From Psammoneis japonica (taxonomy: Eukaryota): 64,000 nt of DNA. Below the pieces are notes generated by a model. It worked only from the letters and a program-made list of their open reading frames with translations. It did no database searches and was not told where the DNA came from. Location of the stretch: contig QPGO01000027.1 in NCBI GenBank assembly GCA_008632985.1, forward strand, positions 62,001 to 126,000, read 5' to 3'. Positions 2,023 to 64,000 of the stretch are shown piece after piece. The position numbers and the translations under genes are program-made. Each line of letters starts with the position of its first letter. The first letter of the stretch is position 1.

Positions 2023-2043
2023 CCAACAACAGCAACAGCAACG

Positions 2044-2074
<31 letters not shown>
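2023..2074. repeat. (CAA/CAG)n microsatellite
   Basis: caacaacagcaacagcaacgggagcagcagcagcagcagcagcagcagcag. Confidence 0.9.
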
Positions 2075-5000
2075 TGCACAGATTCTTGCTGCTGCATGAG
2101 ACCAAGGGGTGTTTGGTGGCCAGCATTGTGGCTTGGATGTGACAACTCTGCCACCAGCAAGATGAGCCCCAATGACTCTGCCTTGCTTTGGTTCCTGTCA
2201 TCTGGGGAGCAGGGTGTGTTGCTGCTGCCATCACCATGACACCATGAAAGAAACAGGCACATTGGGAGAGGGCTCTCATCTTTGCTGATGACTGAACTTT
2301 TGAGTGGCACACAGTGTTGTGTCTCCTTGCTTGTTGTGGTTTCTTGCTCTCTGTTGTTGTTTTTCCCCAGGCAAAAAACCATGTCAGAGCAAGCAAGGAG
2401 AAGTGCAGACCAGCAAGAACAAGCCAACAAAAGGAAAGGGGCTGCACTTGCCAGAATGACAAAATGAGTGGCTTTCTTCCCATGTTTTTTCTCCAAAAAG
2501 ATTGCTTCAAATCTCACTTTTCCAGATTGGTGCCTCTCCACAGCACCATGGTTTCCACCTTGCACACTTTGTCCAGCCACCAACTGCACACAACACACCC
2601 TCACCCAACCTCCAGCTCATGGCATGCAGCCCCAGCATTGCAGCAGCTGCAACTTCCATGAACCAGAAAGCTGAGAGGCAGTGGCAGTTGTGCTCACCTG
2701 ATCTTTGTAGAAAGTTTGGAGAGCATTTCCAGCATTGGCAAATCTTGACAAATGGGCTGAGATTTCACAAGAGCCAGCACAGCAAAGCATGATCCCCCCT
2801 GAAGATGATGCTGAAGAGGACAAAGAAGAGATGATTTCCATGACACACACCACAGAGAATGTGAGTGTCATGTGCAGCTCACCAAATGGCAAGGCATCAT
2901 TTCTTTGCAAGAAGATGACCACCAGTCTCCTGAAGGAGGTGGCTCCCACAGCAATGGCAACTTGGAGCTCAGCAAAGAGAGCTCAGTTGGCTCAAGAAAG
3001 TGCCAAAGTGCCTTTTGCTCCAATTGCAGCATTGCCTGAATTTGTTCGAATGCAGCACCCTTGACATTGTGATGACCATGACAGTGGCAGTCAAAGAATG
3101 GCATCATGAGATCACTTTCCCCAGGTGTGGCAAGGTTGTGCATCATTTGCCCCTCCACTTGCCAGAAGACAAATCAAAATGGCATCTGATCCAGCACATC
3201 AGTCCATTGAAGGCTCTGCAACATGTCTTGCAAGGTGGGGGAACTTGGTCTCTCCATCACTTTTCTGCTGTGCCCTTCCCACAGCTCTGTGGGGCTCTTG
3301 AACATGCTGGGGTTGAGTGTGGCAGAGTGCAAGGTTTGCAAGCAGCACAACCCTTGCACTCAGAGTGAGTGGGTGCACTGATTGGGGGCACGGCACAACC
3401 CACACCTGCAAGCACTCTTGTTGTGAGGCACTTGTCAGGTCAAGTGATGCGTGAGTGCTGAGCTCCTTCCCAGACTGTGTTCATGCCACATTTCTGGCAG
3501 ATCCCACGGCATTTGCTTGAAGCTGCCATTCTTCCTGCTTTGTGATGAGGTGTCTTCTTCTTAATTTGAAGAGCCCACATTGATGAATCAAGCAGTGTGC
3601 AGCAGCTCTCTTGATGACATTTCAACAGCCAAAACTGCCAGCATTTGCTGCTTCAGAGCTGTTTTGCACTGTGACTCCAACCAGAGCACATCACCATGGT
3701 GCAGAATGGCACAGAGAGTTTCCTCTTTCCAGCACTCAGCTGCTTGACCTGTCTCTTGAAGCCAGCCAGTCAGATCTGACAGGCCAATGAGCAAGCAATG
3801 GTGGTGATTGTTGCAAGTGAGAGACTCAATCTCATGGTTGCGAGACTTTGGCTGCAATGGAGTGCATTTGTTGCATTGCAGCATCGTTGCTGGGTGCCAA
3901 AGCATGCAAAGCAGCAGTCAGCTGATGCCAGGCCCACAACTTTTGCATGTCTTGCTTGTCAACACTGCTGCCATGGGGCTGATTGTTCCCACATGATTGA
4001 GCAGATGGCTTGTGTTGCAGCGACCTTGTGCCCAAGCATCTGTGCAGACACATGGCCAAAGCTTGACCCTTTCTACAATGTTGTGTTTGCTGCCACTCAT
4101 GCAGTTTGGTGCATTGAAAAATTCATGCATTGCAACCACACAGATTTAAACTCAGCCCTGTGATGGCTCTTGAGCTGCCTGCTGTTCACACTCAATCAAG
4201 AGGATGCATTTGGTGTCATGTCAGCACATTCTGCTGTGAGACGGAACAATGTGTGAAAAGATCCACAAACCAAAAGAAATGTTTGAATCAAACAAAGCAA
4301 GAGGTGGGCACAGCACTGGGAACTGCTCTCATGCATGAAGTTCCTGTTTCAGCAGTGCTGTTTTGGACTCACCTGAGAGCACAGTGGTGCAAGTTTGGGT
4401 TGCAAGTGTGAAAAAGATGAGTGCCACCACCAGGACAAGGCAAGTCAGACAATGTGCAAAGATGCTCTTTGTGGCAGGAACAAGACAAGCCTTGAGTGCA
4501 GTGTCTGAGAATGTCCAGCACTTGCCCAAGATTGTTGAGAACAGCTGTCAGAAGATCAAGCTGCTGGCAAAGTCAAAACACACAAGCTTCATTTGTGATG
4601 GACTGACTGCCAAGGAAAGGGAGCCCCTCACTTGAAAAGCACTGCCATCTCCTTGTGGGGCTGCACTTTGCAAACATGGGAGAATGTGGCAGGAGCTTGC
4701 AGATGATCTCAACCTGCAAGGGGCTGCAAGGTGTGATTTGAAGCCATGGCATGAAGTCTTTGGCATGGAAACAGCCAATGAGCATTGGGTCCCATTTCCC
4801 AAATGATGAGCTGATGCCCCAGCCCCATCTCAAGCTCCATGAAATCAACTGCAGGGCATCAAAGCATGACTCAAAATTCCCCTGGCATCAAACAAAATCT
4901 TTGAGAATGCCCTGTGGACAATGGGGAAGAATTCTTTTCAGAGTGCTTGCTGCATCAGCAGCCATGGCACACTCTGATGGCAATCCAAGGGCACATTGCC

Positions 5001-5249
5001 AACAGCCAGCACCAGTGGACCAAATGTGCTTCCAATGCCAAGTCACCACAGCACATCCAATGGCAGCAAAGCTCAGCTGCTGTTGGCAATGAAGGCAGCA
5101 ACGGTGATGAGCATGAGTTGTCTTTTTGAAACTTTGATGAGCCCATTTTTTTGTTTGGGGTTGAGGCCAAAAACACTTGCTGTTCCCAACTTTTCCATTT
5201 CCCCAAGTGGAGATGGAAAATCAAGAGAGTGGCTTTGCAGCATCACAGG

Positions 5250-5277
<28 letters not shown>
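5250..5277. repeat. (CT)n microsatellite
   Basis: Run of ctctctct... Confidence 0.95.
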
Positions 5278-5280
<3 letters not shown>

Positions 5281-6594
5281 GTTTGAAAATGTTGCTGCTG
5301 TTGCTGCATTTTGTGATCTTCAAAACCGGAGCCAGCTTGGCCCAAAAATGCAGTGTGTGTGCACAATGCACACCCAACCTGCCACACCCCGGCACTGACT
5401 TGCAAGGTGTCTTTGCGAAATGCATTTTTCACTTGTTCCTCTGCTTTGTCTTTGTGCACAAGCCTCAAATTTTGGGGTCAAATCAAAGACAAGAAGCCTC
5501 CACACAAACTCTGTCATCACACCCCCAAATCACTGACTGAGTTGTTTGCTGTGGCCCAAATGATGGCGTTGAGCAAATCAACAGCGGCTGCCGCCGACCC
5601 ATCACCAGCAGACGGCCCGATGCTTGAGATGGGGGAATCTCACATGATGTTGATTGTCAAAATGCCACACAGGTTGCCCTCAAATCAATTGTTTGTGATG
5701 CCAATCACCAAGAATGATGTGTGGTGGGAACCATCAATGGCTCTTGGCACCAAAATCCCATGCCAGCAGTGCACATTTGCCGCTCTGCACAGCGGCAGTT
5801 TGGTGTCAGATGTTTGGGAAAGGGAAAGCAACATCTGCGAGACAAACACCGTGGGAAAAGTTTGAACAAAGCAACACCACCCAAGACCTGGATCTTGCCT
5901 TTTTTGGTGGGTGGCATGGAAATCAGCAATTGCATTTTGTTTCCCGTGCAAGCTGCCGACTGGCCACAAAAGATCGCCCTCGGCCCCCAAAATCAAGCTG
6001 CGCTCCCCAACAAAAGTTGCTGTCAAAGCTTCTCCTCTCAATTAAAATGTTGCTTCAACCTTCAAATTAGAGCTCATGTGATCATCATTTTCATCAGCCA
6101 TCCAACCGCACACGTTGGCTGCATCAACAGAGACATTGTCGTCAATCGACCGCTGCTGTTTCGCACGCAGAGACAGTCTGAAAAACAACTCCGATGACCT
6201 TTTTGGTGAGATGTGTGCAAATGGATGACATGCAGCAGCCTTAAAATGACACTCACCGAGTGAACGTCCTCTCATAATCGTTCTGTACACACCGCTTTTA
6301 GTTCATTGTCGACACTGACACATGTCACTTCAGAAAGGGGCTCGCAAAAAGTTGGCGCGATTTTGTGGTACAAATGCTACGAGCAATCTACATACATCAT
6401 TTTTGTGTAGGACATACTGGGGAACTCCAGCGCGCAAAGCGCAAATATCGAAATCGGCACAGAGGATTTTTGACCATGGTCAAATTTATCTCAATCTCTC
6501 TCCATCCCTCTGCTCATCGTCCAGAAGCAGCACATGCACCCGCAACGCAGCACCGTTCCTTTTCTCGTACGACACCCGCTGTGCAGCATTCAAC

Positions 6595-23116: not shown

Positions 23117-23496
23117 TCTCTAGTTGGTTATCCGTACAAATGCCATAATGCCATATATGGCATTTCTTTCTACGGCGAAACTGGTACTGATTCTACGTAA
23201 TGCCATATAAAATGCCATATTTTGCGCGCGAAAAAAGCGTGCCGGCGATTGATTCGTGGCCCCCGACTGCGACAAACTCATTTCTTATGTATACAGAAGC
23301 CTTCGAATGCCACTTCCATCGATTTTCCCTTATGTATTTCATACGCCCCTATGCCCAGCGGTGTTTAAAGCTTTGCTATCAACGGAAAAACAATTAGGGA
23401 CCATAGGAAAAATAGTGGTGGCGTTTGGGATCAAAATGCCATATTCATGCCATATTTAGGGCAAATATGGCATTTGTACGGATAACCAACTAGAGA
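23117..23496. mobile_element. MITE-like non-autonomous DNA element (~380 bp)
   Basis: Perfect 31-bp inverted repeat tctctagttggttatccgtacaaatgccata (23117-23147 and 23466-23496). Several internal TGCCATA motifs near both ends. No coding capacity. Confidence 0.85.
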
Positions 23497-30550: not shown

Positions 30551-33359
30551 TAGAGGAACAACAATTGCTGTGACCTCTCTACTCGACGGCACCAAGCCAG
30601 GAATGAATGTGTCTACGTATATATTTGCTTATTATATTTAATCTTTATAGTTTACTCGCTTGAGCCAACATGGTGTGGCAGGATTATAGTTGCGTTAATT
30701 ACTCCCGGTAGAGAGACTGAAGCGGTCGACGACTTTGGTGCTGAGAACTTGGAGGAACTTGAACCTGCTCAAGGTGACACATTGCGGGACGGGCGACTTT
30801 ACAGATGCTGGGCCGTCAAACAGTCCTTTTTGAAACAGCGGCAACTTTTTATGTGCACAGTCACACTCACAATTTGTTGGTTGGGGTTTCACCAACAAGA
30901 TGATCATAAACAATCAACCAACACAGTGATTGCTGGTCAATGCTGGTGCCCTTGGGGCAGTCTTTTTTGGCTGGCTGAGGAACAAAACTGTGTGGACAGA
31001 TGTCTCAGACTGGCATCAAGATGCTGTACATGCAATCAAAAACAAGTGCAAGGCTGCTGTTGCCGCCATCACCCCACACCCCCAGGTGCAAGAACACGCT
31101 CTACAGCTGAGCCAAGAACCAACAATGTGTGACACATGTCACCATGACCCACCTCAAGACCCGTTGTTGGGTGTGCAAGTCTCAGAGCCAGCACTTGCAT
31201 CACTCTGGCTGTTGTTGATTTCTTCAACATTGTGGCCACATCTTCCCTTCCATGTGACCACCAGGACAACCTCTGTCACATCCACCCCCACCAAACTGTT
31301 GACCATGTTCTTGTGTGCTCAGATCACAACCACCTCTCTGTTGAACCCCCCCCCCCCCATCTGCCACAATGATGAACCACATGGTCAGGTCCATTGCAGC
31401 CCATCTCTGAATGAAGTCTTTTTTGTGAAAAACTGAGCAAGAGCTTCAACAAGTTGGCTGGGCTCCACCACCATGCAAATGAGACACTTGAAAGAAGTGC
31501 AATGCTTTGGCAAAAAGCAGCAGCAAAATGACTTGTTGCAAGAACAAAAGAGCACACCCTTTCAAAAATCTGGTGGAGAAACTTGCAAATGTGTTTGTTG
31601 CCTTGCCAAGGACCCCAAGTCAACTTGAGATTTTCTGGTCATCAAAAAGTTGATGCACCATGCTGAGGCAGCTGTGCTCAAACTTCTGATGCTGAGCTTT
31701 GGCTTGCAAAGCTGTTGTCAGCAAAAAAGGGCAAAGAGACTTCTGAGGAGCTCTTCTTTGCCATTGCTGTAGTTGGCCCAAGATTAGAAAGCACTGTGGC
31801 TGTCTTCTGCTGTGCCAAAATTGTGAAATCCAAAAATCCCATCCAGGGGCATTGACCAAACATTCTTGGAGCACACAACAAACCTGGCGACATTGCTCTC
31901 ATGGAATTTTGATCCCCCTCAAGTGGCAGCTGGCACACACAGTGCACCTCATCATCACAAATTCACCAGCCATGGCATGGGCATGAAAACAACACAGAAA
32001 GGTGCTCTCTGTCATCAACTTTTTGACAACAAGTTCAAAAATGCACTCTTGCACAAATCACGGTCTTTGGGCTCAAAGTTTGCTGAGTCACCAGCCGTTG
32101 CAGCTGAGCTTTCTCAACAAGCTTTAAAGCTGACCTGCAAAAGCCAAAGCCTCTTCAGCAACCTCAGTGGCTCTCAAATCATGGCCATGATGCTGCCTGT
32201 CATGAACCCACTGCCCACTCCAATTCTTGGACCATTCTTTTAGTCTGAGAGCCACTCCAAGATGATTGACATGACCTTCAATGTCAGTGCAAGCTGCCAT
32301 GCACCACACTTGGCCATCTTGGTGACACCAGCACAGATGATGTTCAAGTGACTGAAGCCCTTCATTCACAACACAGTGCACATGGGATGAACAGCCAAAT
32401 TCATGTTGCATGCCTGCAAAGTTGCTGAGCCCACACAAGGCAGCACAGCTGCCTGCTGTTGTGCAGTTGATGAGTTTGCATCCAACAGAGCAGACCCAAC
32501 AGGCAGAGTGGAAGAAGTTTGTCAAAGATGTGAGAAAAAATCCACAGAAGTCATCATGCATGCATGCAAACCAACCACCAGCACCATGGGCTGATCAACC
32601 CCCCGCACCATTTTGTCTGAAGAACTGCAGCTGTCAGAGACACAGCCCAATGCACTGCCAGCTCTGCTTCCACTTTTGTGTGGCAGAGAACAAATGTTTG
32701 TGCATGCAAGTGTGAGTGCCAGCAGGGCCATGCAAGTGCACATCACATGTGAGCTCCAGTGCCTGCATTTCTGCCACCCGCTGTCTGTGACCCAGCACTC
32801 ATCATGATGTTCTTGGGCATGCTGCTTTTGGCTGTTTTCTGTCTTGTGCCATCACAGTGTGTGTTGCAGCTCTGATGAAGCAAATGCAATCTCTGTTGAT
32901 CTTGCCTTTTGGTGGGTGGAGAGGACAAAGTGTGTGCATCTGGGACACCAATGATCTGGGTCTGACCGTCTGCCACAATCTGGGCATTTCTTGACTTTAA
33001 CACCAGATTTTTGTCAACTTATGAGCCAATTCTCTCCTTGAACACAACATGAGAACTGTGTGAGTTTGTGAGCTTCTAAAACCCAAATTGCTTCTCACTT
33101 TTAAGTGCGATCATTCCTTTCACACAATGCAGACCTGCACCCCAATTGACATTTGGGGTTTCTTGTTCTTTTAACACAAATGTTGCTGCTCATAATCCAC
33201 CCTCCTTTTCTGCCAACTTGTCCCACATTTTGTCTCATTGCTGTGCCATTTTCAAATCCAACTTCCCAATTGCCACACGTTGTTGCATCTGGGCCGCATC
33301 GCAGAATGTTTTTTTTAATTTTCACTTGCCCAGATGTCATTGTTTGTTTCAAATTAAGT

Positions 33360-34493
33360 TCACACACCAGTTTGGTTGGTGGCCATTGCGGCATTTGCTG
33401 CCGCTCCGTTGCCTGCAGCCACCGCCTGCAATGGCAGGTCCTCTCCCATTGGCGCCGCCCATCCTTCCTCTCTCTCCTTTCTTTTTTCCTCTCTTTTGCA
33501 TTTCTTGTTTTCCTCCTGAGACAAGTTTGTCTTCTCTTGCCTTCTCTCCTTGAACCATGCACCGAATCCCTGGTTGTTCTCTCTGTCTTTCACCACCCAC
33601 TGATGCAGATCATTGCACTTCTCGATCCCCTCCTTGCTCCATCCTTGGTTCCTCTTTGCTGATTCCCCCGCCGCCAGCGCTGTGCACTTTGCAGGAGCAG
33701 CATCTTTCACAGTTGGCTTTCTTCTCCTTGCAATGTTTTCTTCCTTTTCCAATTTCTCTGCCGTGTCCTTCACCTTGTTGCAGCAGTTCAAGCACACTGG
33801 CAGAGCAAACGCCTCCGACGAAACCGAAAGCCATTCCTGAAGCATGTCGGTTGTGCTTCCACCAAACTGCACTTGTCCCACCACCGTCGGCACCACAGTT
33901 TCCAAGAACCGTGCACATGTGTCCTTGTCATTTCTTCCCTTTGTCAAGTCTTCGTAAGCCACCAGCGATCCCTCTAAAGCAGCAACTGCACAGACAATGG
34001 CAAAGGAAGAGACACTCATCCTGTTGGACAATCGCCTCCAACACAATCACCGGCACGCACACATCCACTCACCTGTCATTCTCCTCCCAATGTTGTCCTG
34101 CACACTGTTCCTCTTTCGGTTGAGTTTGGTCCTGAACACCTCTTTGCATTCTTCCCAGAACTTCCCCGGTGAAGACGCCATGCTCCTTGGCTCCTGCAGA
34201 ACCAATTTCATGCAATCTCCTCCCACGGCAAGTTCATGATCGAAGATTGTGAACTTGCGACATGGCCAAACACTCTCATTGACAACCTTGGTCAACATCG
34301 ATGCTGTCAATTTCTCGCTCACTGCCGGTGCACGATCCAACACAAGACATCCCTCTGTGGGAGTCACCACCGAACTTGAATCGCCACCTGCATGCTGGAA
34401 TCTGTTCAACTCCCCATGTTCGTTTCTTTGTGCATGCAACAAGGCCGCCACCGCAGGACTCATGGCAACTTCATGTGACACCACACAGATCAA
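33360..34493 (-). pseudogene. Decayed TE-associated hypothetical protein
   Basis: VVPTVVG..SSEAFAL.V(C>Y)LN(CC>YY)..K(C>Y)T..NQGWSKEGIEK(C>Y)NDL(H>Y)..V.KDR resembles an ORF family I associate with diatom DNA transposons. Contains an internal stop. Confidence 0.5.
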
Positions 34494-36044
34494 TCCAACA
34501 ATTGTGTCAGTTTGTCAGCAATTCTTTGTCATGTCCTTTCTCAATCTCACTTGCCGCTGGAAGTTGCACTTCCTCCCTCCGTCGCTCCTGTGAGAACTGC
34601 ATCCTCCATTTTTTTTACCTTCCCAATGGCTTCCTCTTTTTTGGAACTTCCGTCCTTTCCTGTCGCTTTGTGAAAGGCAAGTTGCGAAAAGAATGCACTT
34701 TTGCATGTGATTTTCTCGGTTTTGTTGTTGCTCGCGTGTCCTCTCTCGATTCAAACAGGTCTTTGCATCATTTTTGAGTTCTCATTCCCAACCCCATGTT
34801 TGCACTTCTATCAACATTTCACTGTTTTGAATTGTGTGCCTTTTTCAGCCAATCCAATGCACCAATGAAGATTGCCATGTCATTCAAATCAATGCCAAAC
34901 AACATGTTGTATCTCCTTGTGTCAGTGCATGCATTGCGCTTCCTTGTTGATGCAACATCTGCTTCCTTTGGCACATTGAGTCGTGTCAAACCTCCTGTTT
35001 GTCATCCCTGTCTCAATGGGTCATTCCCTCTGCTTCCCTGACACCACATTTGTCCAGCTGCTCTCTCTGTTGCCCAAATTTTCCAATCCACTTTAATGTC
35101 CACTGAAGTGTGTCATTGTCGCTAAGATGTGGTTGTTGTGAGTCATTCCCGTTGCAGGAACGCGTGTTCCCTCTGTTGCAATCACGTGCCGCCAATTGAT
35201 GATCAAATTGGTCGTTTTGCTGGTGGTGGTGTGGAATCACACGGTGGTGCGGCAAGCTTTGCCTTCTCCGCCAAGGTCATTTGTAACCCCGCTCTCTTTG
35301 CGGCACAAATTCGAAGCCGTTTTAATTTCCTCGACGTTGGTGGTGGTGTTGGCGGTTTTGCGATTGCCTGTCGTCTGCTTGTTCCTGCCTGCAATGCCTG
35401 CAGCATCGAGTTCCACCATCCCCGTCATGATCTTGGCTCTCAGTGGTGTGGTGCCACATGGCACAACAATGCCAGTCGCTTCCCGACCCTGATCAATCAG
35501 GGCTTCCTCTCCGAAGATGATGCTGTTCGTCGGTTGCACCGTCTGAACAACTTAAAGATTTTCTTCAATGGCTGCAATGGGCGAATGCTTTTTTTGACAA
35601 CAACGCGACACAGAACCAACTTGAGGAGATGCTGTCCAACGAGTGTCCTGAAGGTGCTGTTGTCATTTCACTGGACATGATGTTTTGTGTTTGTGCGCAC
35701 AAATGGAGGCATGGAGCATTCTTTGTTCCTGCCCATCCAGACAATCTGTCGTGGGGAGGTGGTGTTGACAGGCACCTGCTTCACAAGTGCACCAAGAAAA
35801 GAGACGATGCCGTGGAGACTGGGCATTCCACCAGGAACGACCTGGGGTCTGACATCAAATGTAAATTCAAGCCTGCCAAAAGTGGGTGACTTTGCAATTT
35901 CACTTTGTTTGTGACGTGACTGTCGTCCATGTGAGCAATGCATTGTCAATTGGCCCTTTACACAAACCCACTTTGCACCTGTGTCAACTTGCTGCTTTGC
36001 CAGTTTTGCATTCCAACACATGCTTGTTCACACGCTTGCTGTGT

Positions 36045-36941
36045 TCACACACTTGCTGTGTCGAAATTGTGGACTGGACATGCCATGTTCCTTCCATCCG
36101 AACTCGTTTTGTTGGGCAAAGCTTGGTGCAACATTCTTGCATCAAAAACAAATGCAGTGCCTGCTTCTCCAACCAGCAATTGTTTTTCCAAACCCAACCC
36201 AACCAATTGTCTTTCGCGCTCCTTCTCATTCAATGTCACCTCACAACTGTCCGGCCACATCTCCACTGCACCATTGTGCTCCGTCATGTCATCAAGGAAC
36301 AGAAACATGGTGAAAATTTTGTTGCCAGGTGACAATTTTGTTTCCACACAATCGCGATGAATTTCCCCCTTTGACCAGAAGTTGGATCTTGAACTTGAAG
36401 CAGGAGCATTTGCTGCTGTGTGCCGGGATGTCTTTCTGCTCAAATCACCCGCCAGGGGAAAGCCAGGAATTAACTCCAACATTTTTTCTGCCAACCCAAT
36501 GCCTTCCGCCTTTTCCTTTTTGTCAATGGTGAACTCACCGACAAAACGGTGTCCTTCCTTTTCTCCCTTCCTGCTTGGTGCCTTGTTTGCAAGCGTTGTC
36601 ATCTTGTTGAGCAGGGGTGGTGGTGTTTTGAATTTTTGCAAGCAGCCTTTTTTTCTTTCCTGGTGCTCTCTTTCTTTGGACCCCACCTTCTTGCTCTTGA
36701 CGACATGAGATTTCATTTTGCCCGGGCATGTCAGTGACTTGCCATGTTTCTGGCATGAAGTTGTCGGCCAACGGGCAAATTTCCGGCATCTGTTCACAGA
36801 ACACTTCCGCGCCATTCTCTGAAGTTGCCTGTTCCACCAAATCAAATGGCACCTGGTCTTTTTCTTTAAGTGGAACAGACCCAATGTAGCGAAAGTCCGC
36901 ACCCATTGCTTTGCAACAAAAACGGCTTTCTTGCCAAACAT
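36045..36941 (-). pseudogene. PhyH-type 2-oxoglutarate/Fe(II) dioxygenase with an N-terminal Cys/His cluster
   Basis: IHRD..FLFLDDMTEHNGAVEMWPDS..GEAGTAFVFDARMLH.A.PN.T..R gives the HxD...H facial triad and distal Arg. Upstream KCSVNRCRKFARWPTTSCQKHG. Confidence 0.7.
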
Positions 36942-37295
36942 GTGTTGCCAACAGCGGTCTGTCTGTTGTGGGCACCACGGGTGTTTTTTTCACAAACAGT
37001 CCCATGTGATGTTTTGACAACGGCAGTCCATCTGTCGGGTGCATCACAGACGTTTTTTTGCCAACAGTTGCATGTGATGTGATCTTCGTTGATCCTGTTT
37101 GCTGAATGATCTCATCAAATTGGTCATCCCAGCTGTCTCAAAAGCACAGAAAACAATTTTGTTGCTCACAATTCTGTTGGTGATGATGTGAGATGTTTTC
37201 ACATCACCACAGCGGCAGACACAAAGCAAAAGCTTCCATCCACCGCACATTCCGCACCACAAACAAACCATTGCTTTTTCAGCACTGCACCCATC

Positions 37296-37410
37296 TGTTG
37301 ACAGAGCAATTTGGTGTCACTTTTCATTGTTAGAACTGTTTGTTAACAAAGTAATTTGGTGTCACTTTTCTGTTGTCAAACATGTTTGTCAACAGAAGAA
37401 TTTGGCATCA
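37296..37410. repeat. ~45-bp tandem repeat, 2.5 copies
   Basis: tgttgacagagcaatttggtgtcacttttc / tgttaacaaagtaatttggtgtcacttttc / tgtcaacagaagaatttggcatca. Confidence 0.8.
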
Positions 37411-38231
37411 GTCATTTGTCAATGCATGTGTGTGGCAATGGACACCTTTGGCACCACTTTTTTGCTTGTGCACTCAACACTGGCCTGTGCAGTGTCATGA
37501 CACAAAGTGCATCTCCCACAGCAAAACACATTCTCCCGAATCTTGTCCAAGTCGCTGATCAACTCATGTTGAGCAACAAACAGATGTTGTTTGGGTGGCT
37601 CCATTTCTTGTCTTCCGCAGCCTTGTCATTCCCTTTGCAGAACAACAACCTCAAAATGATCCCACCCCAAAGAATCACACCAAATCCCTTGCCTGTTAGG
37701 CCACGTTGCCGAAATGGAACCAACAAATCTCTTTTCCGTCCGATGCATCGCACTTCTCTCCCGATGACATTCCACCCGACTCAACCTGCAGTGTTGACCA
37801 ACAATCCATCTGGGCGTTGTCTCCCGCCGGTGCATCTGGCCCCGTTTGGCACAGAAAACAGCCTTGACACCAAATTGAGGCTCTGTCATTCTCCCACACG
37901 TTGGGCAAACAAACGCGGTCATGTTTGTTTGTCACTCAAAAAAAGTGGTTTGACAGATCACTTGATCCGCGGCATTGTGCTGATGATGTTTGATGTGAAA
38001 ATCTTTGTTCGAGAGCAGTGGGAAGAGCAATGCATGCAACCCAAACCACCTTGGTGAATTTGCAAAATGGCCGGTGCACCCAAGCTGCATTAGATTGGCT
38101 TTGAAGGAGGCCGCCCTTCTAGAGCTGGCTCAACGAAAGAAAAAAAAGGCATGCAAAAAAATCATTGATGCTCGCCACTTCCAAAACAAAAAATGCAAAA
38201 GATCTGCAGCGGCACAGGTGGGGATTGCATC

Positions 38232-38657
38232 TTGCGTGCTGCTTCCACTTCCCATCTGTTTCTTGCCTGAAAAATTGTTGTTGATGTTTCCTAGAATGAC
38301 ACCATTGCCAAAGCTCCAACGATTGCAACTGGTGTCGATTCCTGTGTGGAAGGTGCCAAAGACGACGACAATGACACCATGGGCGGAGACGGATGTCATG
38401 GATGACGAACAACAAATTTGGACTGTTGCAGACAGTGAAGAATGTTCATTGGTAAGGGATTTCATCTGTCGTGCTGCTTCCCTTTCCCATCGGTTCCCTG
38501 CCTGACAAAGTGCATGTTGATGTGTCCCAGAATGACAGCAATGATCAAAGTCAAACGATTGCCACCGGTGTCGACTCCATTGAGGTGGCCACCCATGACA
38601 ACAACAACGACTCTACATGGGCGGAGACAGATGACATGGTTGATGAACATCCAATTG
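38232..38657 (+). repeat. Diverged direct repeat, period ~235 bp
   Basis: cgtgctgcttcc..ttcccatc..tgcctga..gttgatgt..agaatgaca..ggtgtcga..catgggcggagac.gatg occurs at ~38232-38420 and ~38467-38657. Confidence 0.8.
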
Positions 38658-39300
38658 ACACTGGCAGATTGTTGGTGATTGGCATGGAAGTTGGTGGTGA
38701 TTTAAATGGAAGTGACAAAGATGCACGCGACAGCATTCGAACTCAACGTCTGGTGGATCTTGGATGTGACGTTTGCACAATTGACAAGAGGATGCGCCAT
38801 GCTTCCTCGCCAAAGCACATGGAGTGTGATGTTCTAAGTTTGCACAGATCAGCAGAATGGAAGAGATTGTCCAAAGAGACAAAGTTCGATCACATTTGCT
38901 TTGACTGCGTGTGTTCAAACCCGGCCTGTCTCTTGGCTTCAGTTCCAAAGGGACCTTTTTTCCAAGATGCACTCAGGGAGCTGCTGCGGTCGCTGATGAC
39001 AATGGGACATTCTTCCTGCCTGCATGCAATCTTGTGTTTTCCGAGTTTTGGATCGAATGGCAGAAACAACATGTGTCGGAAGAGTCCCCAATGCGCTTCT
39101 TGCATGAAGAGCAAGTGTGCGACGAGGTCCCCATCCTTCGAGACGAGGCACAAGCAGACATCTCTGCCTGCGGAAAGTTTTGTACAAGGGAAGAATGCAT
39201 TGAGGATTGTGAGTCAAACACTTTTCTCAAAATTTTGGAGCACACAGTCATTCGGCGAATGAGGGATAAAGCTGGCTCAGTCTCAGCCTTTTTTTTTTGA
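38640..39300 (+). pseudogene. Decayed ORF with a Rossmann/SAM-methyltransferase-like strand pattern
   Basis: RLLVIGM..RD..R..L..LG(C>Y)DV(C>Y)TIDK..H..CD..KFD(H>Y)I(C>Y)FD(C>Y)..FF..L..GTFFLP, with a frameshift near 38980. Confidence 0.4.
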
Positions 39301-41496
39301 TGTCGTTGCACGATGTTTCCGGGAAACGCTTTCAACACACTGGTGCCAACGGCTGTTGTCATCCTCTGGATCCAGACCCAATGCAGCTGCAGTGAGCAAC
39401 TCCACGAAAGCTTGGTCAAAAAATTGGCAGACATGAAGGGGGTCATCAGAACAGTGGGAGGGCACATGGCAGTTGTGAGACAACCTCTCGGTCTTGCTTC
39501 GGCCCATGACTCTTCCACAAATACGTTCTTGATTGAGGATGTCCCCCAACAGGGAGTTGCAATGCATCACAGCTCTGACATGGTGGTGTTGAGTGCCTGT
39601 CATTGCACGAACAATGGGTGGATTCACCTGGCAATGAAGCAGACCATGGAGGACCTCCTTGAGAATGCGGTGACAGTTGGCAACAACAAGGCACCCAAGC
39701 TTGTCTTTCTTGTCTTTCCTGTCCAAATTGGGCATGAATCCGAGTGGATGCCAACAACAGCAGTCGCGGTGTGCGTCCTCTTGAATCATGGCAAGTGAGT
39801 GCATTGCAGGCTCCATCCCGTGAGGATTGACTGCATTGACTCCGGTCTTGTCCAAGCAATTGACAAGGTGAACGTGAAAATCAGATGCCATTTCCTTTGC
39901 ATTGGTGCAACGTTGTTGCCACTCGCCGTCACCCATGTCTTGACTTTGAGTGGACAATCGCCAGTCCCCAGGATGATCCGGGAACGACATCTCAAAACCG
40001 TCAGCCGGGCTAGCGCTGGTTTCCAAATCGCCATCTGTGGGGGGTGGCACACAAGGTGACCAGACATCATTTGGATTAACCTGCAACTTGGAAAGATCAC
40101 GGAACACTGGCTCGGTGAAGAGATCCTGCAAGGTCTCGGTGAAACTGTAAACCGGGAAAGGTGGGGAGCAATGACATTTGGGTCCATCCTTCTGTTGCTG
40201 TGTTGGGTTGTCACATTCTAGCATCACAGTGGCAGTGCGGGGGAGAGGAACATTGGGAAATAACCCCAGGAGTTGCTTCATTGCCACGGCGGCAGTGATG
40301 GGTGGCTTGGACAAATCCAGTCTTTTTTCTGCATGCTCTTAATGCAAAATTCTCATCACTTTGTCGACAAAGTCAATTGCAACACCTGACCGACAACACA
40401 AATGCAGCAAACGCACCATGGGTGCAATGCTGGGTGAGCAGACTGGAGGCACATCGAAATCCTCATCGGGTGCGACATCACGCGGCGGGCCAAGAGGGTT
40501 GTGTTGATCGAGGGAGGAAACAGGATCTTCTGTCGGACCGGAAATTGAGGGGGGGCCACAACTGCCATCGCGACGGTCGGCTCCAATGAACTCGGGAACA
40601 TCCACAGGACTGTCCTCTCCAAGGGCGGACACACCATCATCTGCAAACAAAACAAATTGGCGGACATTTTGGGAGGCTGCACTGGTGGCAGCAAAGTTGG
40701 CAGCTGAGCGCAATCGACCAGAGCGTCTGACGGAGGGTGGGCGCAGTCCACTTCCGGCAGAGGGAGGACAAGCTGGAGAAGAATTGTCCATTGGTGTGGG
40801 AGGAGATGGAGCTGGATTCCAAAGGACTTTGGGGAGGGGAGGAGGGGGTTTGTCGTCGGAGAAACCAAACCCAGCAGGATCATCATGGTTGTCCAGTGAT
40901 TCATCATGGTCGTCATCTGGAGGGGGAAGTGCACGGGCGGCAGTGGAAGATGTGGCATGTGGGCGAAGGGACATTTCCTCTTTTTCACGGCAGGGCAAGC
41001 ACTTCTGTAGATGAAGGGCGATGTTGGAAAAGGGAACATGGCAATGGGGACATTTGGGTTTGTTGGTGTTGGATCCAAGGGAGCCGACGGAGGCAGAATC
41101 CAGAGGATGAGAGGAAAGAGATGTTCTGCCGGATGAAGAAGACAATTGGGTTGCACGGCGCAACTGTGTCAATGGGGGATGGAGACCAGATGCTGCAGTG
41201 CAGTGCCAAGATGGGTGATGCTGCACGTTGTTTTCAGAGTCAAATCCACGTTGTCCGCAATGAGGACAACTAAAAGACTTGGTGGAAATGGCGGAATGGA
41301 GGCAGTTAGTTGCGATGTGCCTGCTGAGGCCACATTCGGAAAAGAAACCGGTTCGTTTGCACCATGGACAAACAAGACCATCAGACGCATGGCCGATGTG
41401 CACAGACGAAGGAGTTGAGAAGAGAATCGAAAGCAAACAGTGGGTGCAGCAACAATCACTTGGGGACATGGTGAGGGTGGAAACACAGAGGTGCAA
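39283..41496 (-). pseudogene. Plavaka-like DNA transposase, decayed and apparently C-terminally truncated
   Basis: N-terminal C2H2 fingers (CPWC..H, CPHC..H). Core reads (C>Y)LDKTG..GMEP..SL..W(H>R)PLGFMPNL..N(C>Y)HRIL..L..LLGD....RICG..R..C, matching the Plavaka transposase pattern. Confidence 0.7.
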
Positions 41497-44372
41497 CGTG
41501 CGGATGGACGGGGAGGAAGGATGGAATGGGCAGGGAGAGAAAATTGAGAAAACAATTGGAGTCTAGATTGACGGACATGGGCAGCGATTTTGATCCAGAA
41601 AGTTGATTGACACACAATCCAGAAATTAAAGTGGAACCAAATGTGCACATGAGGCTTGTCGGATGGGGGGGCAAATGGTCAAATTGAGGAACACAGATGT
41701 TTGTTGTTGAACATTTCAGAAAATCTGGCTTGTCAAATCAGCACGATCTTGGATCAAAGGGAGAAAATGTTGGGTTTCATTTCAAGAAATCTTGACGGCC
41801 AGTGCGACACCTGGATCATTGGTGTCCCAGATGTGGAGGTCACTCCTGTGTGATGCGCTGGAGTTGTTTGTGTGAAAACAAGCCTGGCGGGACAACCCCA
41901 GCTCATGTTGTCACCATCATTGCAACATCTGAGTTGCAGCTGAAGACAAGTGTCACAAAGAACAATCCCACGACACTCCATGACATTGCCTCACACAACT
42001 GCAGACCATCTCTGCAGATTGACAGCAGACAGACAGACCATCAGAAAACAATGGCTGGTGGCTGATCATTCTCGATCAAAAACAGCAAATCTGCTGGAGT
42101 GTCAACAAAACTGGAAACACTGCAAATGGACCACAACAGATGCCACAAGAATTGACCACAAAATTTTCATCCGACAGAAAAATGTCTCTGTGATCTCTTG
42201 GAGGGAGTTTGCACATCACAAACACCTTTCAACCACACGAGCTGCTTTCCATCCCAGCTCGGTGATGCCACGTGTAAAAAACAACCCCCCGTTTTTAACC
42301 AAATGCCCACTTTGATCGACTGACAGCATGCAGATACGAAGCTCAGCACACTTTTGGGGGCTGGAATGGGGGTGAACGTTGGTCACCAACCAATCACTGA
42401 ACATTGACCCTCGCACTTGCCCCCATGCAACAAAGGTGCTCCACGAAAAGTTGGTTCCATTTTCAAACACCCGACACCATGAACAACACATGCTTGCTAC
42501 ATTCTTGCAAGACATCGGTTTGAAGAGTGTGACACTGACAATGCTCATGTCTTGTGCATTTTGTGGCTCTAGCGGGGGTCAAATCTAGCCAATTCTTCCA
42601 AAAACTTTGAGTTGAGTGGGTCACATGGGATTCAAGACACGTGACTTGCTGCACAGTTGTTGAGCCTTTCTCCTTTCTTGACTCCAAGATTGGATGACAA
42701 CATCAACACAAGACCTGTTTCATGGCTGTGTTCTGTTCTCTGATCCATGGCCAGCCTCCTGACAACTGCATTTGACCTCTTTCATGCTGCAAACTGGCAA
42801 AGCAATCCTCGAATGCTCATTTCAAGTCACACTTTTCTGTTTTGAGATTTGACATTTGCAACTTTGCAACAAATCTAGAGTGGGCACGAGCCAGGAAGAA
42901 GCTCTGTTCACTGCTGTTTGTCATTCTGTAGAATGGCAGCACATCAGAACAATGTTGTCAATGTTGTTTGACTGCTTTTTTCTTGAACCATGCACCAACT
43001 TCATTCTGCGCTCTCGCTGCCATCCGCCCGACTCTCCTCCATCCAAGAATGCTTGGCTGAATGTGTTGCAGTTGCTTTGCCAAAGTCTTGCATGTGTTCG
43101 TCTGTTCAATGCCATTGCTCAAATGGGACAATTGACACGACAATGACATTGGATTCGTTCATGTGCTGCTCATGCCAGGAAAGACAAAACAAGAATTGGC
43201 TGTGGCGGCAAGAAAGTTGAGTGAGACAACAAGTGGTGAGCCTTGGACATGTTGACAACACAATTTTGATTTTAAATTTACTTGCCTTTTTATGAACTCG
43301 GACTTCAACACATGGGATTCCGAAAATCCGGCAAATGGCGAGTTGATGCATTGTCTGCATGCAACATGGTGCAACGACAAAGTGAAACAGCATGTTTCAA
43401 TGTTTCTCGCCAAAATGAACATCTCTGAATGAACGGTTGCAGCTGCACATTGACGAGGGTCTGACAGAGCTTCTGTTGCAATGGTCCAAAAAACGACGAA
43501 TGTTCAGACACCTCATCCACCGCGTCAATGTCATCATCGGCTCTGGCGGGTTTTTGACAATTTCTCCGTGTTGTCACCACAAGATGGTCTGCACACTCAT
43601 CTGGAGCATGCTGGCCATGCCAGTTTGAAGCCATTTAAGGCTTGGGTCTCGCAGCTGCAAATTTGCAAAAAATGATTGTTTGTCAGCCCCGATGGCTGCA
43701 CCCAGAAGGCAACAACACAAGTTGAAACAGAGACAAAAGGACAAACAAAGTCTTTCATCTGTTCATCAGATTTCCTTGAGAGAATGAGGGGATCTTCACC
43801 TCTCACTCTCTCCCCAAGATCTTCTGTGTCTGGTTGGAGCATGCTGGAGAGAAAGAAGAGCGGCCGAGAGAGAGGGTGCAGGAGATGTGCTCTCATTTTC
43901 AGGCAGCCTCGAGCAAGCCCAACAAGCAGTGGAAAGAGTTGCAGTTCCTTCTCTGGACTGTCATCTTGCAGATGCAGCTCTCGGATCGCATTCATCACAG
44001 ACATCCAACGGGGCCTGCTGTTGGCTTCAAGCCGCCGGGCTGGCTGCTGGAGTGGCCAGCTGAACGCTTGTCTGCGCCTTGCGCCGGATGGTTCCCTCTC
44101 AGAACGAGAACAACCGCGGCACGAATCATATCAAGAATGCGGCATCAACTCGCGCAACAACGTGGGTGATGCCGGATGCCGATCAAAACGAACAACAGAG
44201 AACAGAATGAGACTACATCATGCATCAGTGCATGGATAGTCTCTAGAGGTGTATTGTGCATCACACGCGACGGTTCCGTGCTGTGTAATATTATTGTGCC
44301 GTGCAAGAAGACAAGAAGCAACCACTGGGTAGGGTTTGCACATTAATCGATACGAAAAGCAAGAACAACGCA

Positions 44373-52139: not shown

Positions 52140-53785
52140 ACCAATGTTCAGACGGCATCATTCCTCTAAAGTGGTGGTTGCGTCACGCATCCGCAGTCTT
52201 TCTCCACAAGAGAGAGAAGGACAACTTTTAAACACAGTGTGCAGGACGTTTGGCAGAAGGAATGGGAGATGAGTCAGTGTGGAGAGAGGAGGCAAAGCAA
52301 AGGGCATGCATGGAAAGATGGCAGATGAAGTTGTGGTGGCCAAGCGTTTGAACAGTCAGCCCATTGGGAGGAAGGGAAGGCAGAATGGTGCATGCTGCCA
52401 GAGCGATCATTGAAAAGGCAGCTCCACGCAAAATGAGCAGAGGGAAGAAGAGCAGATGGGGGTGTGAGGGTGCAGAGAAAAACAGAGCAGGAAGCACTGG
52501 AGGTCAGAGGAGGAAGACCAGGGAGGCTTTGGTTGAGAGCAGGCAGAGGAGAGCAAAGAACCAAAGAGAGGAGCCGACAGCATCAATGGAAGCCAAGACA
52601 CCACCAAGGTGATCAACTGCAAAGAGAAGAAGGAAGATTCTGTCATTGTTGAGCAAAGCAACAACAAGAAATCCATCGGCAAAGGCAGAACAGAGCAGCC
52701 AAGAAGCTTCAGTCTCATGCTTGAGTGGTGTGCCTCAGTTGAAACAGGGAAGAGCAAGAAGGATCCTGGTGGGGAATGGCGACATTGACAGAGGGACATG
52801 GCGGTGGCAGAAGGGAGCTGGAAGAGAAGCAGGAGCTGGCATGGAAATGCCAACATCAGCAGAGCAGAGGAGCAGATGGGTGTGGAAAGCAGATTCATGA
52901 GCTCAAGGCAAACATCACTGGAGGAGTGACAGATTTTGGCAAGGGGCTCCAAAGTCTGAGACACAATGAAGAAAGTGTCTGGGAGACCATCAGCAGAGAG
53001 TTTAGATTTGTGACCATGATCACTGCAGGCATTGAGCACAGCATCACTGCAGAGACAGGGTGTGCCAATGAGGGAAGGAGGGAGGACTGGGAGATGGAGT
53101 TTGTTCTGGGCAGCAACAATGATGCAGCCATCAAAAGCAAGGCAGGAGCTCTCTGGAAGCAACGGAAGAGGAGCAAAGAGGAGGCTGGACAGCAGAGACA
53201 AGAGAGAAGGTGGAGAAACTTGCACATTGTGAGGAGCATCAGCTGGGGTGGCAGTGACCCCTTGCTGCTGGTGATCATGGCAGAGAGGACAGCGTGAGAG
53301 GTCAGGGAGAGAGCAGCAGACTTGAGAAGAGGAGCAGCCAAAAAGGAAGAAGCAGCAGACTCAACAAGAGCAGCCAAAGAGGAAGTGGAAGAGGAGGAGG
53401 TGGAAGCAAGAGCAGAGGCAAAGCGGTGGAATGCCATGCAGAGATGCAGGGTCAAACGGGGGTTGCTCCAGGAGGACAAAGACATCTTGAAGAAGCAGCG
53501 GGAAAGAGCGATGGCAGCCATTGTGTCGTCTCCAGATGGCAGCTGAATGCCATGAGCAGCAGACCACAAGGATCAGAGGAGAGCAACAAGGAAGGGGGGA
53601 TGGAAGCAGTGGACAGGTCCCAAAGGCCAAAGCCACCGAGTGAAGCAGGGAGAAAGGTGATGGCAAGGGAGTGGGGAGGAAGAGACTCATGGCCAGCATG
53701 AGAGGTGGCAACAACGAGTCGAAGGAATCGATGGTCAGCAGTGTGACAAGGGTGTCCTGAAAGGAGGATGTCCAAAGAAAAGGAT
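52140..53785. mobile_element. TpA/CpG-depleted island 3 (decayed purine-rich ORF, unassigned repeat)
   Basis: No TA seen from ~52231 to ~53788. Broken Glu/Arg/Ala-rich reading frames on the + strand. Confidence 0.55.
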
Positions 53786-54070
53786 CGGGAGGGTTATCGG
53801 GATCGAAGTTATGATAAGAGTCAGCACCAAGAAGGTGAGTGGAGGATGCCCCGCTGGATGAGGGTGGGCGTGAAGAACACATCATGCGCGTGCTTCACGC
53901 GTGTTCTTCTGTCATGGTGTATGTTCGTCTGCGACACGTCGTTGAAGTGCGTGCTGTCTGCGCCGCAACTGCATTCCGTGAGATCATCACGCACGCAAGA
54001 GCGAGCATGCCGTTGTCGCTGTTGAAGCCGATATCATTTTCTTGACAGCGCGAACTTTGTTATTGCCACC

Positions 54071-62121: not shown

Positions 62122-62399
62122 GATTGTGTATAGTGATATGGTGGGAGAAACGCTATGTACCAGCGTCGCTGGAAGGGATGTGTGTCGTTGACGACGACGG
62201 TTGCTGTCAGAGATCCTTCGCCGCCGCCGGCATGGTGTGTTGTGGTGTTGGGTGTTGCTGATTTTTAGGGTTTCTGGCGCGCTTATCATACTTTCAAGTA
62301 CAAATAAAATTTATGTTTGATGTCATCACCAATTAACGATTCAGATAATTCAGTCGTGATCCGAGATCAAGCAAGTCGTGCCAATGACCTGAGCTAAAA

Positions 62400-64000
62400 T
62401 CACCTCTCCACTCACACAAACATCATGGTTGACATCATGACCCCTGACCCAACAATGCCCTCACTGTTTGCAAGTCCAAGTAATGCTGTCAACAACAACG
62501 TGACAATTGTGAACATGCATCAAGCTTGGCAGCAACAGCCCTTTGTAAAGCATCAGGACACTCGCCACACAAACACCATGGTTGACATCATGACCCCTGA
62601 CCCAACAATGCCCTCACTGTTTGCAAGTCCAAGCAATGCTGTCAACAACAACGTGACAATTGTGAACATGCATCAAGCTTGGCAGCAACAGCCCTTTGTG
62701 AAGCATCAGGACACAAGAACAAGGCAGCAACAGCCCTTTGTGAAGAGCATCGGGGACACAAGAACAAACAAGTTGAGCCGCCTTCTCCAGGAGCAAGTTG
62801 GTTTCAGACAAAACAGAGTTTTTTTAAATGTCTCTGAGAGAGCTGAGACTCATGTTTTTTTGTCATCAGCACATTTTGTTGGGTGGTGGATGTGTGCATT
62901 GGGACTGCTTTCACCCCCCACCAAGAGAAAAAAGCAAGAAACTTTTTGGCAACAACCCACAAGGTTTTCTGTGCATTTCCACGTGCCACACACTTTTGCA
63001 CGAAATTTGTGCAAGACAACTGAGCTCCAGAACACTGACATTTTTTTAATGCAAGCTCACACTTTTTGCTGGGCCACTGAGGAAAGCACAATGGTTAAAA
63101 TTTTGTTTCTTGGCACACAAACAAACAAATCTTTTTCACTTGTTTTAAGCCACCTGTGTGGCTCATTCTGTCTGCATTTTAAACACTTGTTGAGAACAGC
63201 TTCATTTGTTTTTTTCCTTGCATTTGTCAGATCTTAAGTTGCCTGTGTGGCTCACACAAGTGTTTTCTCTGTGTGCTGCAGTTTGCCACTTGCAGAGCAA
63301 AAATCAGTGAAATCGATTCCGTGATGTGCTTGACAAGTGCAAGACCCAGACAAACAACCCAGGTGAGTGTGAACAAGTTGATTGTTGCCACAGTTGCTTT
63401 TAAAAATGATGTGAATGTCACTCAATGCATTGTTCATGCAACATGGCACCACACAGGCGCAGTCTTGTTTTGGTTTCTTGGAAGAAGGGTGGGCTCCAGT
63501 TTTGGGTGGTTGAGATCTGCACTTGTGAGCAAAAAAGAAAAAAGCATGAACAATGTGCACCCTCGGTGTGACACACTCATCTCATTGATGATGTGAATGA
63601 TGCTCACAGATTTTGAACAGACAACTGTGTGTCTGGAATGTCTTTTCGGAAGCCAGATTTGGGTGCCACCTTTTGGAAAGCAACGGATGAAGCACGATCA
63701 AGTTTGCAAAAGTCACAAGTGACTTCAGTCATTTTCATGGGTGTCTCAGACTTCTGTTGTGTGCAAGTGACACTCACAGGGCACAGTGCAACAGTGAGGG
63801 GGTTGTTGCAAGTGTTTTCTTCACCATCCTGCTGTTTGACATGATGACTGCACTCATTCTGGCTGGTGCAAGGGACTCTTGGGGCATTGTTTGTCTTTCT
63901 TGGTTGATTTGTCCCATTTCAACAACTGTGTTGTTCAACAACAATGACAGGTGAACCAGACTGGGCATTTCAGTGGAGAAATGAACATTGTGCATGTGTT
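62400..64000. mobile_element. TpA/CpG-depleted domain 4 (runs off the window)
   Basis: Abrupt TA/CG loss just upstream of the RecQ promoter. Surviving TA are mostly TTAA. Confidence 0.55.
62413..62745 (+). repeat. 153-bp tandem duplication plus a short partial third copy
   Basis: atggttgacatcatgacccctgacc... starts at 62425 and 62578. Partial copy ggcagcaacagccctttgtgaag at ~62722. Confidence 0.95.

Follow-up and report, generated by a model that had tools for sequence, protein, structure and literature searches.

Repeat-induced point mutation (RIP), a RID-dependent, premeiotic defence of ascomycete fungi triggered by duplication itself, acts through C>T changes and makes TA. Mutation in which TpA is itself the target has been described in the rhizarian Bigelowiella natans, where nearly all of 231 mutations in two viral inserts were TpA to TpG or CpA (Mettrop et al., bioRxiv 10.64898/2026.01.13.699255). 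According to the text available of that preprint, the mutated DNA is integrated, single-copy and of NCLDV and virophage origin, the rate is orders of magnitude above background, an ADAT2-like deaminase was proposed, and TpA-poor transposon-like genes were also noted. As reported in the accessible parts of the respective papers, engineered TadA editors show a genome-wide A>G preference for TA (PMC9398351), have a 3' neighbour preference for C and against A (PMC8989541), and in one variant rank YAY above YAR (PMC12528748). A literature search that covered few subscription papers returned no report of TA-erasing mutation in diatoms, and nothing on TpA is found in the available portion of PMC11884799.

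The window analysed here (the whole stretch of 64,000 nucleotides from the diatom Psammoneis japonica) contains a short tandem repeat (table 1) in which three homologous sites read TG, TA and CA. The 91-Mb genome has 24 matches to silicon transporters, as fits a diatom. The original prediction, that all three descend from a TA, is real and correctly polarised, the repeat being one spot of a transposon-wide mutation that erases TA. The 45-bp repeat has no special standing, as TA loss spans whole transposon blocks. Three units by themselves are little proof, which is supplied instead by the transposon family. Taken jointly, the direction of the change, its TA specificity, the independence of the copies, the TAY preference and the restriction to repeat blocks are regarded as very nearly certain.

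Table 1. Coordinates of the features of the window discussed in the text (a point denotes no strand).
Feature	Position	Strand	Remarks
45-bp tandem repeat, 2.4 units	37296..37405	+	TRF; non-coding transposon interior
Homologous dinucleotide in the 45-bp units	TG 37299, TA 37344, CA 37390	+	
235-bp-spaced direct repeat	38221..38656	+	TA at 38292, CA at 38528
TA-poor block	30710..44213	.	transposon and older relic DNA either side; 70 TA in 13.5 kb
Second TA-poor block	1..6241	.	13 TA, 45 CG
Third TA-poor block	52230..53794	.	1 TA; another dispersed repeat family, 45 matches
Fourth TA-poor block	62396..64000	.	9 TA; contains 153-bp tandem pair
Plavaka-like DNA transposon, 8897 bp	32937..41833	.	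48 TA, 287 CG, 901 TG, 873 CA
Left terminal inverted repeat CATCTGGGACACCAATGATC	32937..32956	+	target duplication TG just before, 32935-32936
Right terminal inverted repeat	41814..41833	-	target duplication TG just after, 41834-41835
Broken transposase frame, two ORFs	39283..41562	-	one frame in the little-mutated copy, with weak Plavaka and C2H2 matches
Cargo ORF, PhyH-like 2OG-Fe(II) oxygenase domain	36045..36989	-	domain match

Re-reading of the letters gave TGTTGAC at 37296, TGTTAAC at 37341 and TGTCAAC at 37387, and the companion differences were likewise found as claimed, namely GCAATTTGG at 37306 versus GTAATTTGG at 37351, GGTG at 37313 and 37358 versus GGCA at 37404 (the ggTGtc/ggCAtc pair) and, in the 235-bp repeat, ccTAgaatgac at 38292 versus ccCAgaatgac at 38528. 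The alignment of units and homologous elements that had been proposed as a check was carried out unit by unit, and 29 of 30 loci could be aligned. Across these 29 loci the site reads TG in 12, CA in 14 and TA in 1, with a gap in 2, for unit 1; TG in 9, CA in 12, TA in 6 and CG in 2 for unit 2; and TG in 11, CA in 16 and TA in 1, with a partial gap in 1, for unit 3, the rows of about six divergent loci (L021, L022, L025, L026, L028 and L029) not being strict orthologues because their unit register looks shifted. One locus, the little-mutated copy L009 on contig C267, has TGTTAAC in units 1, 2 and 3, one of the grounds on which TA is taken as the ancestor of the three sites. The alignment upheld the TA ancestor but not the use of the family consensus as its arbiter. 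A consensus of CG, TG or CA had been named as evidence against a TA ancestor, and the majority is in fact CA at all three sites (14, 12 and 16 of 29), yet the test is invalid: the CA majority arises by saturation, so that the consensus misleads and the test would reject a correct inference. The majority consensus was therefore rejected as ancestor. For the ggTG/ggCA companion the difference stands, while the unit 2 column alone does not polarise it directly, since TA is absent there (TG 8, CA 18, CG 1, TT 2 and TA 0 in 29 loci). In the 235-bp repeat, site 38528 reads CA in 6, TG in 3 and TA in 2 of the 11 covering loci.

The same direction is found throughout the element. The TA observed/expected ratio (O/E) is 0.04-0.17 in 29 of the 30 loci and 0.67 in L009, and the TA sites of the latter read, in 1662 comparisons with the 29 other loci, CA in 43.7%, TG in 43.6%, TA in 5.4% and CG in just 17 cases (1%). 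These values agree with the proposed A>G in one copy and T>C in another and speak against a CG ancestor. Furthermore, the CG sites of L009 remain CG in 52% of 819 comparisons; TA sites that are rarely CG, next to CG sites of which half are kept, are not decayed CpG. Of 222 polymorphic columns in the transposase region, 72 have a CG share of zero and 115 one of 40-90%, a bimodal distribution by which TA-born and CG-born columns can be told apart. The C267 copy and three of four outside homologues have the Tyr of YxDKTG, where the window copy has Cys.

The C267 copy is itself partly mutated, with 59 of 77 TA-type sites retained. Its neutral-column divergence from the 10 least diverged copies is 1.8%, these differing among themselves by 2.2%; being about as distant as the other copies, it looks, from its sequence, spared rather than simply new. 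The 15-kb contig end C267:66000-81437 (L032-L034) holds a transposon copy, a nested LTR retrotransposon and a gag-like ORF that largely keep TA and CG, and adjoins heavily depleted DNA, as a spared or recent island.

With regard to INDEPENDENCE and rate, copies that have both lost TA agree on TG or CA in 60% (383 copy pairs); agreement is 61% in 20 pairs that are 1-2% apart elsewhere and averages 91% in two pairs less than 1% apart. Since agreement is approximately 0.60 even between close copies, the TA mutations postdate insertion. Rates were estimated from the 10 copies, out of 27, with the lowest divergence, leaving out L046 and L048 as near-duplicates. With TA retained at 90 of 475 and CG at 680 of 936 sites, the per-base hazards in these 10 copies were 0.83 for TA, 0.16 for CG and 0.011 for other A>G, corresponding to TA ratios of 5.2 and 74.

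The sequence context was analysed with a competing-risk model of 160 sites and 3710 site-copy observations, single-state sites having been dropped. The relative TA rate was 1.0 with C or T, 0.50 with G and 0.43 with A at the position 3' of A, with TAY mutated at about 2.3-fold the rate of TAR. Survival of TA was 18% at YTAR sites (CI 12-26, 41 sites), 6% at asymmetric sites and 1.5% at RTAY sites (0.4-2.9, 36 sites), and among the 83 asymmetric sites the TAY strand was favoured in 62 and not in 19. The residual TA of the window blocks comprises 54 YTAR, 18 RTAR, 12 YTAY and 5 RTAY, as compared with 226, 423, 445 and 498, respectively, outside the blocks. Some sites exceed the YTAR average, with TA surviving in most copies: window position 38292 (14 of 14 covering loci, from an alignment into which 27 loci were put) and positions 211, 274 and 281 (22, 21 and 17 of 28) and 831 (22 of 29) of the L032 element; they are possibly shielded by a wider context or a bound protein. 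Adenines outside TA sit at background and AA is not targeted: singleton A>G changes were found after A at 62 of 12833 (0.48%), after C at 48 of 12401 (0.39%) and after G at 35 of 9018 (0.39%) positions, with background C>T singletons at 0.51% before C and 0.45% before T.

Newly arisen TA appears, with good probability, to be purged again, which amounts to recurrence. Where CA/TG columns are conserved, a singleton change to TA occurs in 9 of 11855 cases (0.8 per 1000), whereas C>T singletons in CC, TC and CT reach 3.7-5.2 per 1000, a contrast softened by the also low C>T values of AC and GC columns (about 1.2-2.4 per 1000). CA>TG double transitions number 42 versus 0-4 in seven other classes, with the caveat that some may pass via CG or stem from a biased ancestral TA.

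At the scale of the window, TpA drops in the four sharp-edged blocks of table 1, within which O/E values are 0.06 for TA and 0.32 for CG, as opposed to 0.56 and 1.02 outside. The blocks at 30710-44213 and 52230-53794 are dispersed repeats, and the family of the latter, unrelated to the transposon, is also depleted (TA O/E 0.00-0.39 in the cores of 20 loci, and no more than 0.15 in 16 of these). Two of the three mismatches of the tandem pair in the fourth block are TA versus CA/TG. TA is retained in three pairs of host duplicates of the window, a comparison in which age and possible selection are uncontrolled; 1-kb host-gene duplicates have O/E values of 0.54-0.63, and in the 1-kb pair that is approximately 90% alike (96 mismatches in 1011 columns) the two values are 0.58 and 0.57. 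Control duplicates keeping both TA and CG lie at 29438-30618/48113-49109 and 15976-16784/23831-24653, and one such pair encodes a reprolysin-like metallopeptidase. In TA-rich DNA at 23117-23496, perfect inverted repeats of 31 bp, separated by 318 bp, probably represent a young MITE.

The survey of the element flanks started from 42 end loci, 37 of which had a terminus and 34 of which were used. While 20 of the 34 flanks are TA-poor throughout, 14 become TA-rich at 50-1239 bp from the terminus (median approx. 400) and none does so within 50 bp. The flank at L039 is single-copy, yet TA-depleted, and the TA-rich switch at L049 corresponds to a young MITE; for these two flanks, empty insertion sites with which flank loss could be polarised were searched and none was found. 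It is suggested, at somewhat better than even odds, that depletion spreads a few hundred bases beyond the element ends, this being the simpler reading, although insertion beside old islands may also account for the pattern. Four copies of the MITE, more than 99% alike, keep all 16 TA, even within a depleted block. The family (L049:728-1042) is 310 bp long, with dozens of copies, the best being 99-100% alike and with TA intact, and such a young family is a time-zero substrate for the mutator.

The loss of TA is accompanied by that of CG, both rising with copy divergence. Across 27 copies the two are correlated (rho 0.64), with age as a confounder, and no dependence of TA survival on distance to CG was found in the transposon copies (rho 0.18, p 0.12). 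DNMT5, which methylates CG in diatom transposons according to the available text of PMC9998398, accounts for the CpG decay of the TA-poor blocks but does not act on TA; CG methylation would be a plausible mark for targeting TA loss. The genome contains 27 DNA-methylase matches. Among the C5 DNA-methylase genes, those at L122-L124 and L128 (contigs C301 and C297) sit in TA-poor DNA that keeps CG, a setting that suggests that the methylases are carried by repeats and that TA can be lost while CpG does not decay. Outside this genome, two metagenome loci carrying a relative of the transposase (L103 and L104) are not depleted (TA O/E 0.65 and 0.63), whereas the P0002 transposase of a public assembly, known from the protein alone, has His in place of a conserved Tyr, along with elevated Cys and His contents, which hints at a TA-erasing process in another organism.

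The transposon is present in at least about 40 matched copies (searches with three of its parts matched at least 38, 49 and 43 times). Its termini, CATCT..AGATG, are identical 20-bp inverted repeats, with a 2-bp target duplication in all seven copies having both ends, and in the little-mutated C267 copy the transposase is a single 881-residue frame. It is labelled Plavaka-like from a weak match to PF18759 (E 4e-5, 23.4 bits, below the cut-off of 26.3), a domain borne by the transposase homologue P0004. The PhyH-like cargo, also found at L033:5300-6163, shows a pattern resembling HxD...H...R together with a weak match to a WRKY19 zinc finger, and may be a counter-silencing factor. A second cargo ORF (38456-39262, forward strand) is devoid of Pfam matches and lies in a stretch that is missing from the little-mutated copy; SAM methyltransferases are its atlas neighbours (0.79-0.83), and the atlas matches of both cargo ORFs, all below 0.9, serve as leads only. 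Fungal Plavaka elements carry TET/JBP oxygenases, and PlavakaB, as described in the available text of PMC12730594, resembles the diatom element in its Plavaka-like transposase, target duplication (2-3 bp in PlavakaB and 2 bp here), CATC termini and oxygenase cargo. The two differ in host, in the PhyH-like nature of the diatom cargo and in the termini, CATCA..TGATG in PlavakaB, with four of five letters the same.

The best explanation of these data, with a probability of roughly 55%, is considered to be that adenine is repeatedly deaminated at TpA within silenced DNA. A host process limited to silenced, transposon-rich DNA would convert TpA to TpG on either strand, to be read as TG or CA, acting on each copy after its insertion and continuing until nearly all TA is gone. 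Adenine would be deaminated to hypoxanthine in DNA by an enzyme of the TadA/ADAT fold and then fixed as G by replication, and what guides the enzyme would be heterochromatin or CG methylation, not the pairing of sequences. Family searches gave 5 MafB19-deam, 9 dCMP-deaminase-fold and 4 A_deamin matches, and no expanded or outstanding deaminase family emerged from these six-frame, exon-wise searches, which miss divergent families, but only housekeeping-looking ones. Going by their motifs, the genes are presumably ADAT2-like (G000:C26:119851), TadA-like, dCMP-deaminase-like and RibD-like, with two A_deamin genes. An ADAT2-like gene is expected in any eukaryote. At L070:319-1791 (reverse strand; G000:C79:88500), a deaminase-fold domain is followed in one frame by a DIOX_N/2OG-Fe(II) oxygenase. 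Strand-coordinated runs, expected of a deaminase of single-strand DNA, are absent: no coordination of neighbouring changes was found for TA and CG sites at any distance in the saturated copies (all |z|<2). This absence is not decisive, since many rounds, in repeated bursts, would blur the runs.

From sequence, an adenine lesion in TAY and a thymine lesion in RTA are indistinguishable, TAY on one strand being RTA on the other. The spectrum is therefore formally identical if the T of RTA is the equally targeted base, oxidised or otherwise modified (of the 5-hydroxymethyl- or 5-formyluracil type) so as to pair with G and give T>C. The genome and the transposon both contain 2OG-Fe(II) oxygenases, and thymine hydroxylation occurs in algal repeats. 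This reading is nevertheless held to be unlikely: near-complete conversion demands a strongly miscoding lesion while oxidised thymines miscode weakly, and the family at 52.2-53.8 kb is mutated too, without a PhyH-like cargo. Error-prone gap filling of the polymerase-eta type, following T:G repair of deaminated methyl-CpG, would generate A>G near methylated DNA; it could draw on five Y-family polymerase genes and would fit both the CpG decay of the same blocks and the sparing of the little-mutated copy for both dinucleotides. The hallmark of polymerase eta is a WA signature, with A>G at both AA and TA, and A>G after A is indeed the top non-TA class in the 10 young copies (54/3009), but this excess vanishes when only singletons are counted, leaving no signature at AA. 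With TA lost five times faster than CpG, the supposed trigger, decays, and with no link to CG distance, this route is judged improbable. About as improbable are other routes to the same outcome, such as adenine methylation followed by deamination, or TpA base excision with biased resynthesis; no candidate deaminase stands out in searches that miss divergent families, which leaves room for them, but they have no positive evidence in their favour.

Explanations that dispense with a TA mutator acting on DNA are far less credible still. That the sites are decayed CpG, L009 having gained TA through a RIP-like CA>TA change, draws on the real CpG decay, the CA majority and the RID-related DNMT4 of diatoms (PMC9998398, in the text available), and is refuted by the almost complete lack of CG in TA-type columns while true CG columns keep about half, by the host-like TA content of L009, which shows no excess and comes with a longer open frame, by the Tyr kept in outside homologues, and by a TA O/E of 0.06, impossible for a TA-making process. 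RNA editing of the ADAR type, returned to DNA by reverse transcription, could invoke the two A_deamin-family genes, but the transposon is cut-and-paste DNA, its strands are mutated equally and a single-copy flank is depleted too, so that it can hardly be entertained. The same verdict is reached on a sequencing or assembly artefact. Long-read miscalls at modified bases occur, and sequencing run X1 may derive from the assembly's own sample; its contigs, at a depth near 58, nonetheless repeat the TA-poor stretches, matching 30577-32124 with six and 32205-32962 with two other letters, and neither the young MITE copies with their 16 TA nor the tracking of TA and CG loss with copy divergence fits miscalling. 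Between assembly and run X1, three of four substitutions in 30760-32124 are at TA, and three of seven residual TA differ, in an ambiguous direction. As a random transition in this stretch would make a TA in about 23% of cases (a hand estimate; p near 0.04), these differences are compatible with ongoing activity but do not prove it. Two TA>CA differences of run X1 lie at 30620 and 30622, in a TA run just beyond the block edge.

By comparison with known systems, TA-directed deamination in the diatom has in common with TadA-derived base editors the A>G change in DNA at TA with a favoured 3' pyrimidine; according to the available descriptions, those editors are engineered and show some CA, GA and AA editing, as opposed to the background level of non-TA adenines here. 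With RIP it shares transitions at specific dinucleotides, which build up to saturation in one repeat copy after another, ruin the coding capacity and extend into flanking DNA. It is not RIP, as direction and trigger both fail: RIP makes TA by C>T, while here TA is removed (TpA O/E 0.06, CA>TA depleted), and RIP is triggered by duplication, whereas the diatom 1-kb gene duplicates are spared. By analogy, the diatom process works like the TpA hypermutation of B. natans, with which it shares TpA to TpG/CpA on both strands in foreign or mobile DNA only; TpA-restricted A>G/T>C, TpG and CpA at 44% each of the 1662 comparisons and the sparing of host genes are the corresponding diatom features. The B. 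natans process is rhizarian, seen live in a subset of mutation-accumulation lines in two viral inserts, with mild depletion (Rho 0.45), whereas that of the diatom affects transposons near saturation (O/E 0.06), jointly with CpG decay. The available text of the preprint reports no 3' preference, re-purging or flank effect (a figure or supplement could hold context data), and the words 'diatom' and 'CpG' do not occur in it.

Targeted A-to-G mutation of genomic DNA is a recent report from one rhizarian preprint, without an enzyme, and a saturating, transposon-wide diatom form would extend the process to a second major lineage, one with genetic tools, in which the enzyme should be findable. A natural DNA adenine deaminase, if true, would matter for genome-defence biology and base editing; in such genomes repeat consensus, ages and protein annotation are distorted, with CA where the ancestor had TA and Tyr reading as Cys or His. 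A broader and more tentative proposal, for which confidence falls short of even, is that diatoms own such a deaminase for genome defence, recruited to silenced chromatin, acting on TAY more than TAR on both strands, spreading a few hundred bases and repeating until TA is gone. It would be shared with Bigelowiella and would date far back in the SAR lineage, as an equivalent of RIP whose chemistry runs the other way.
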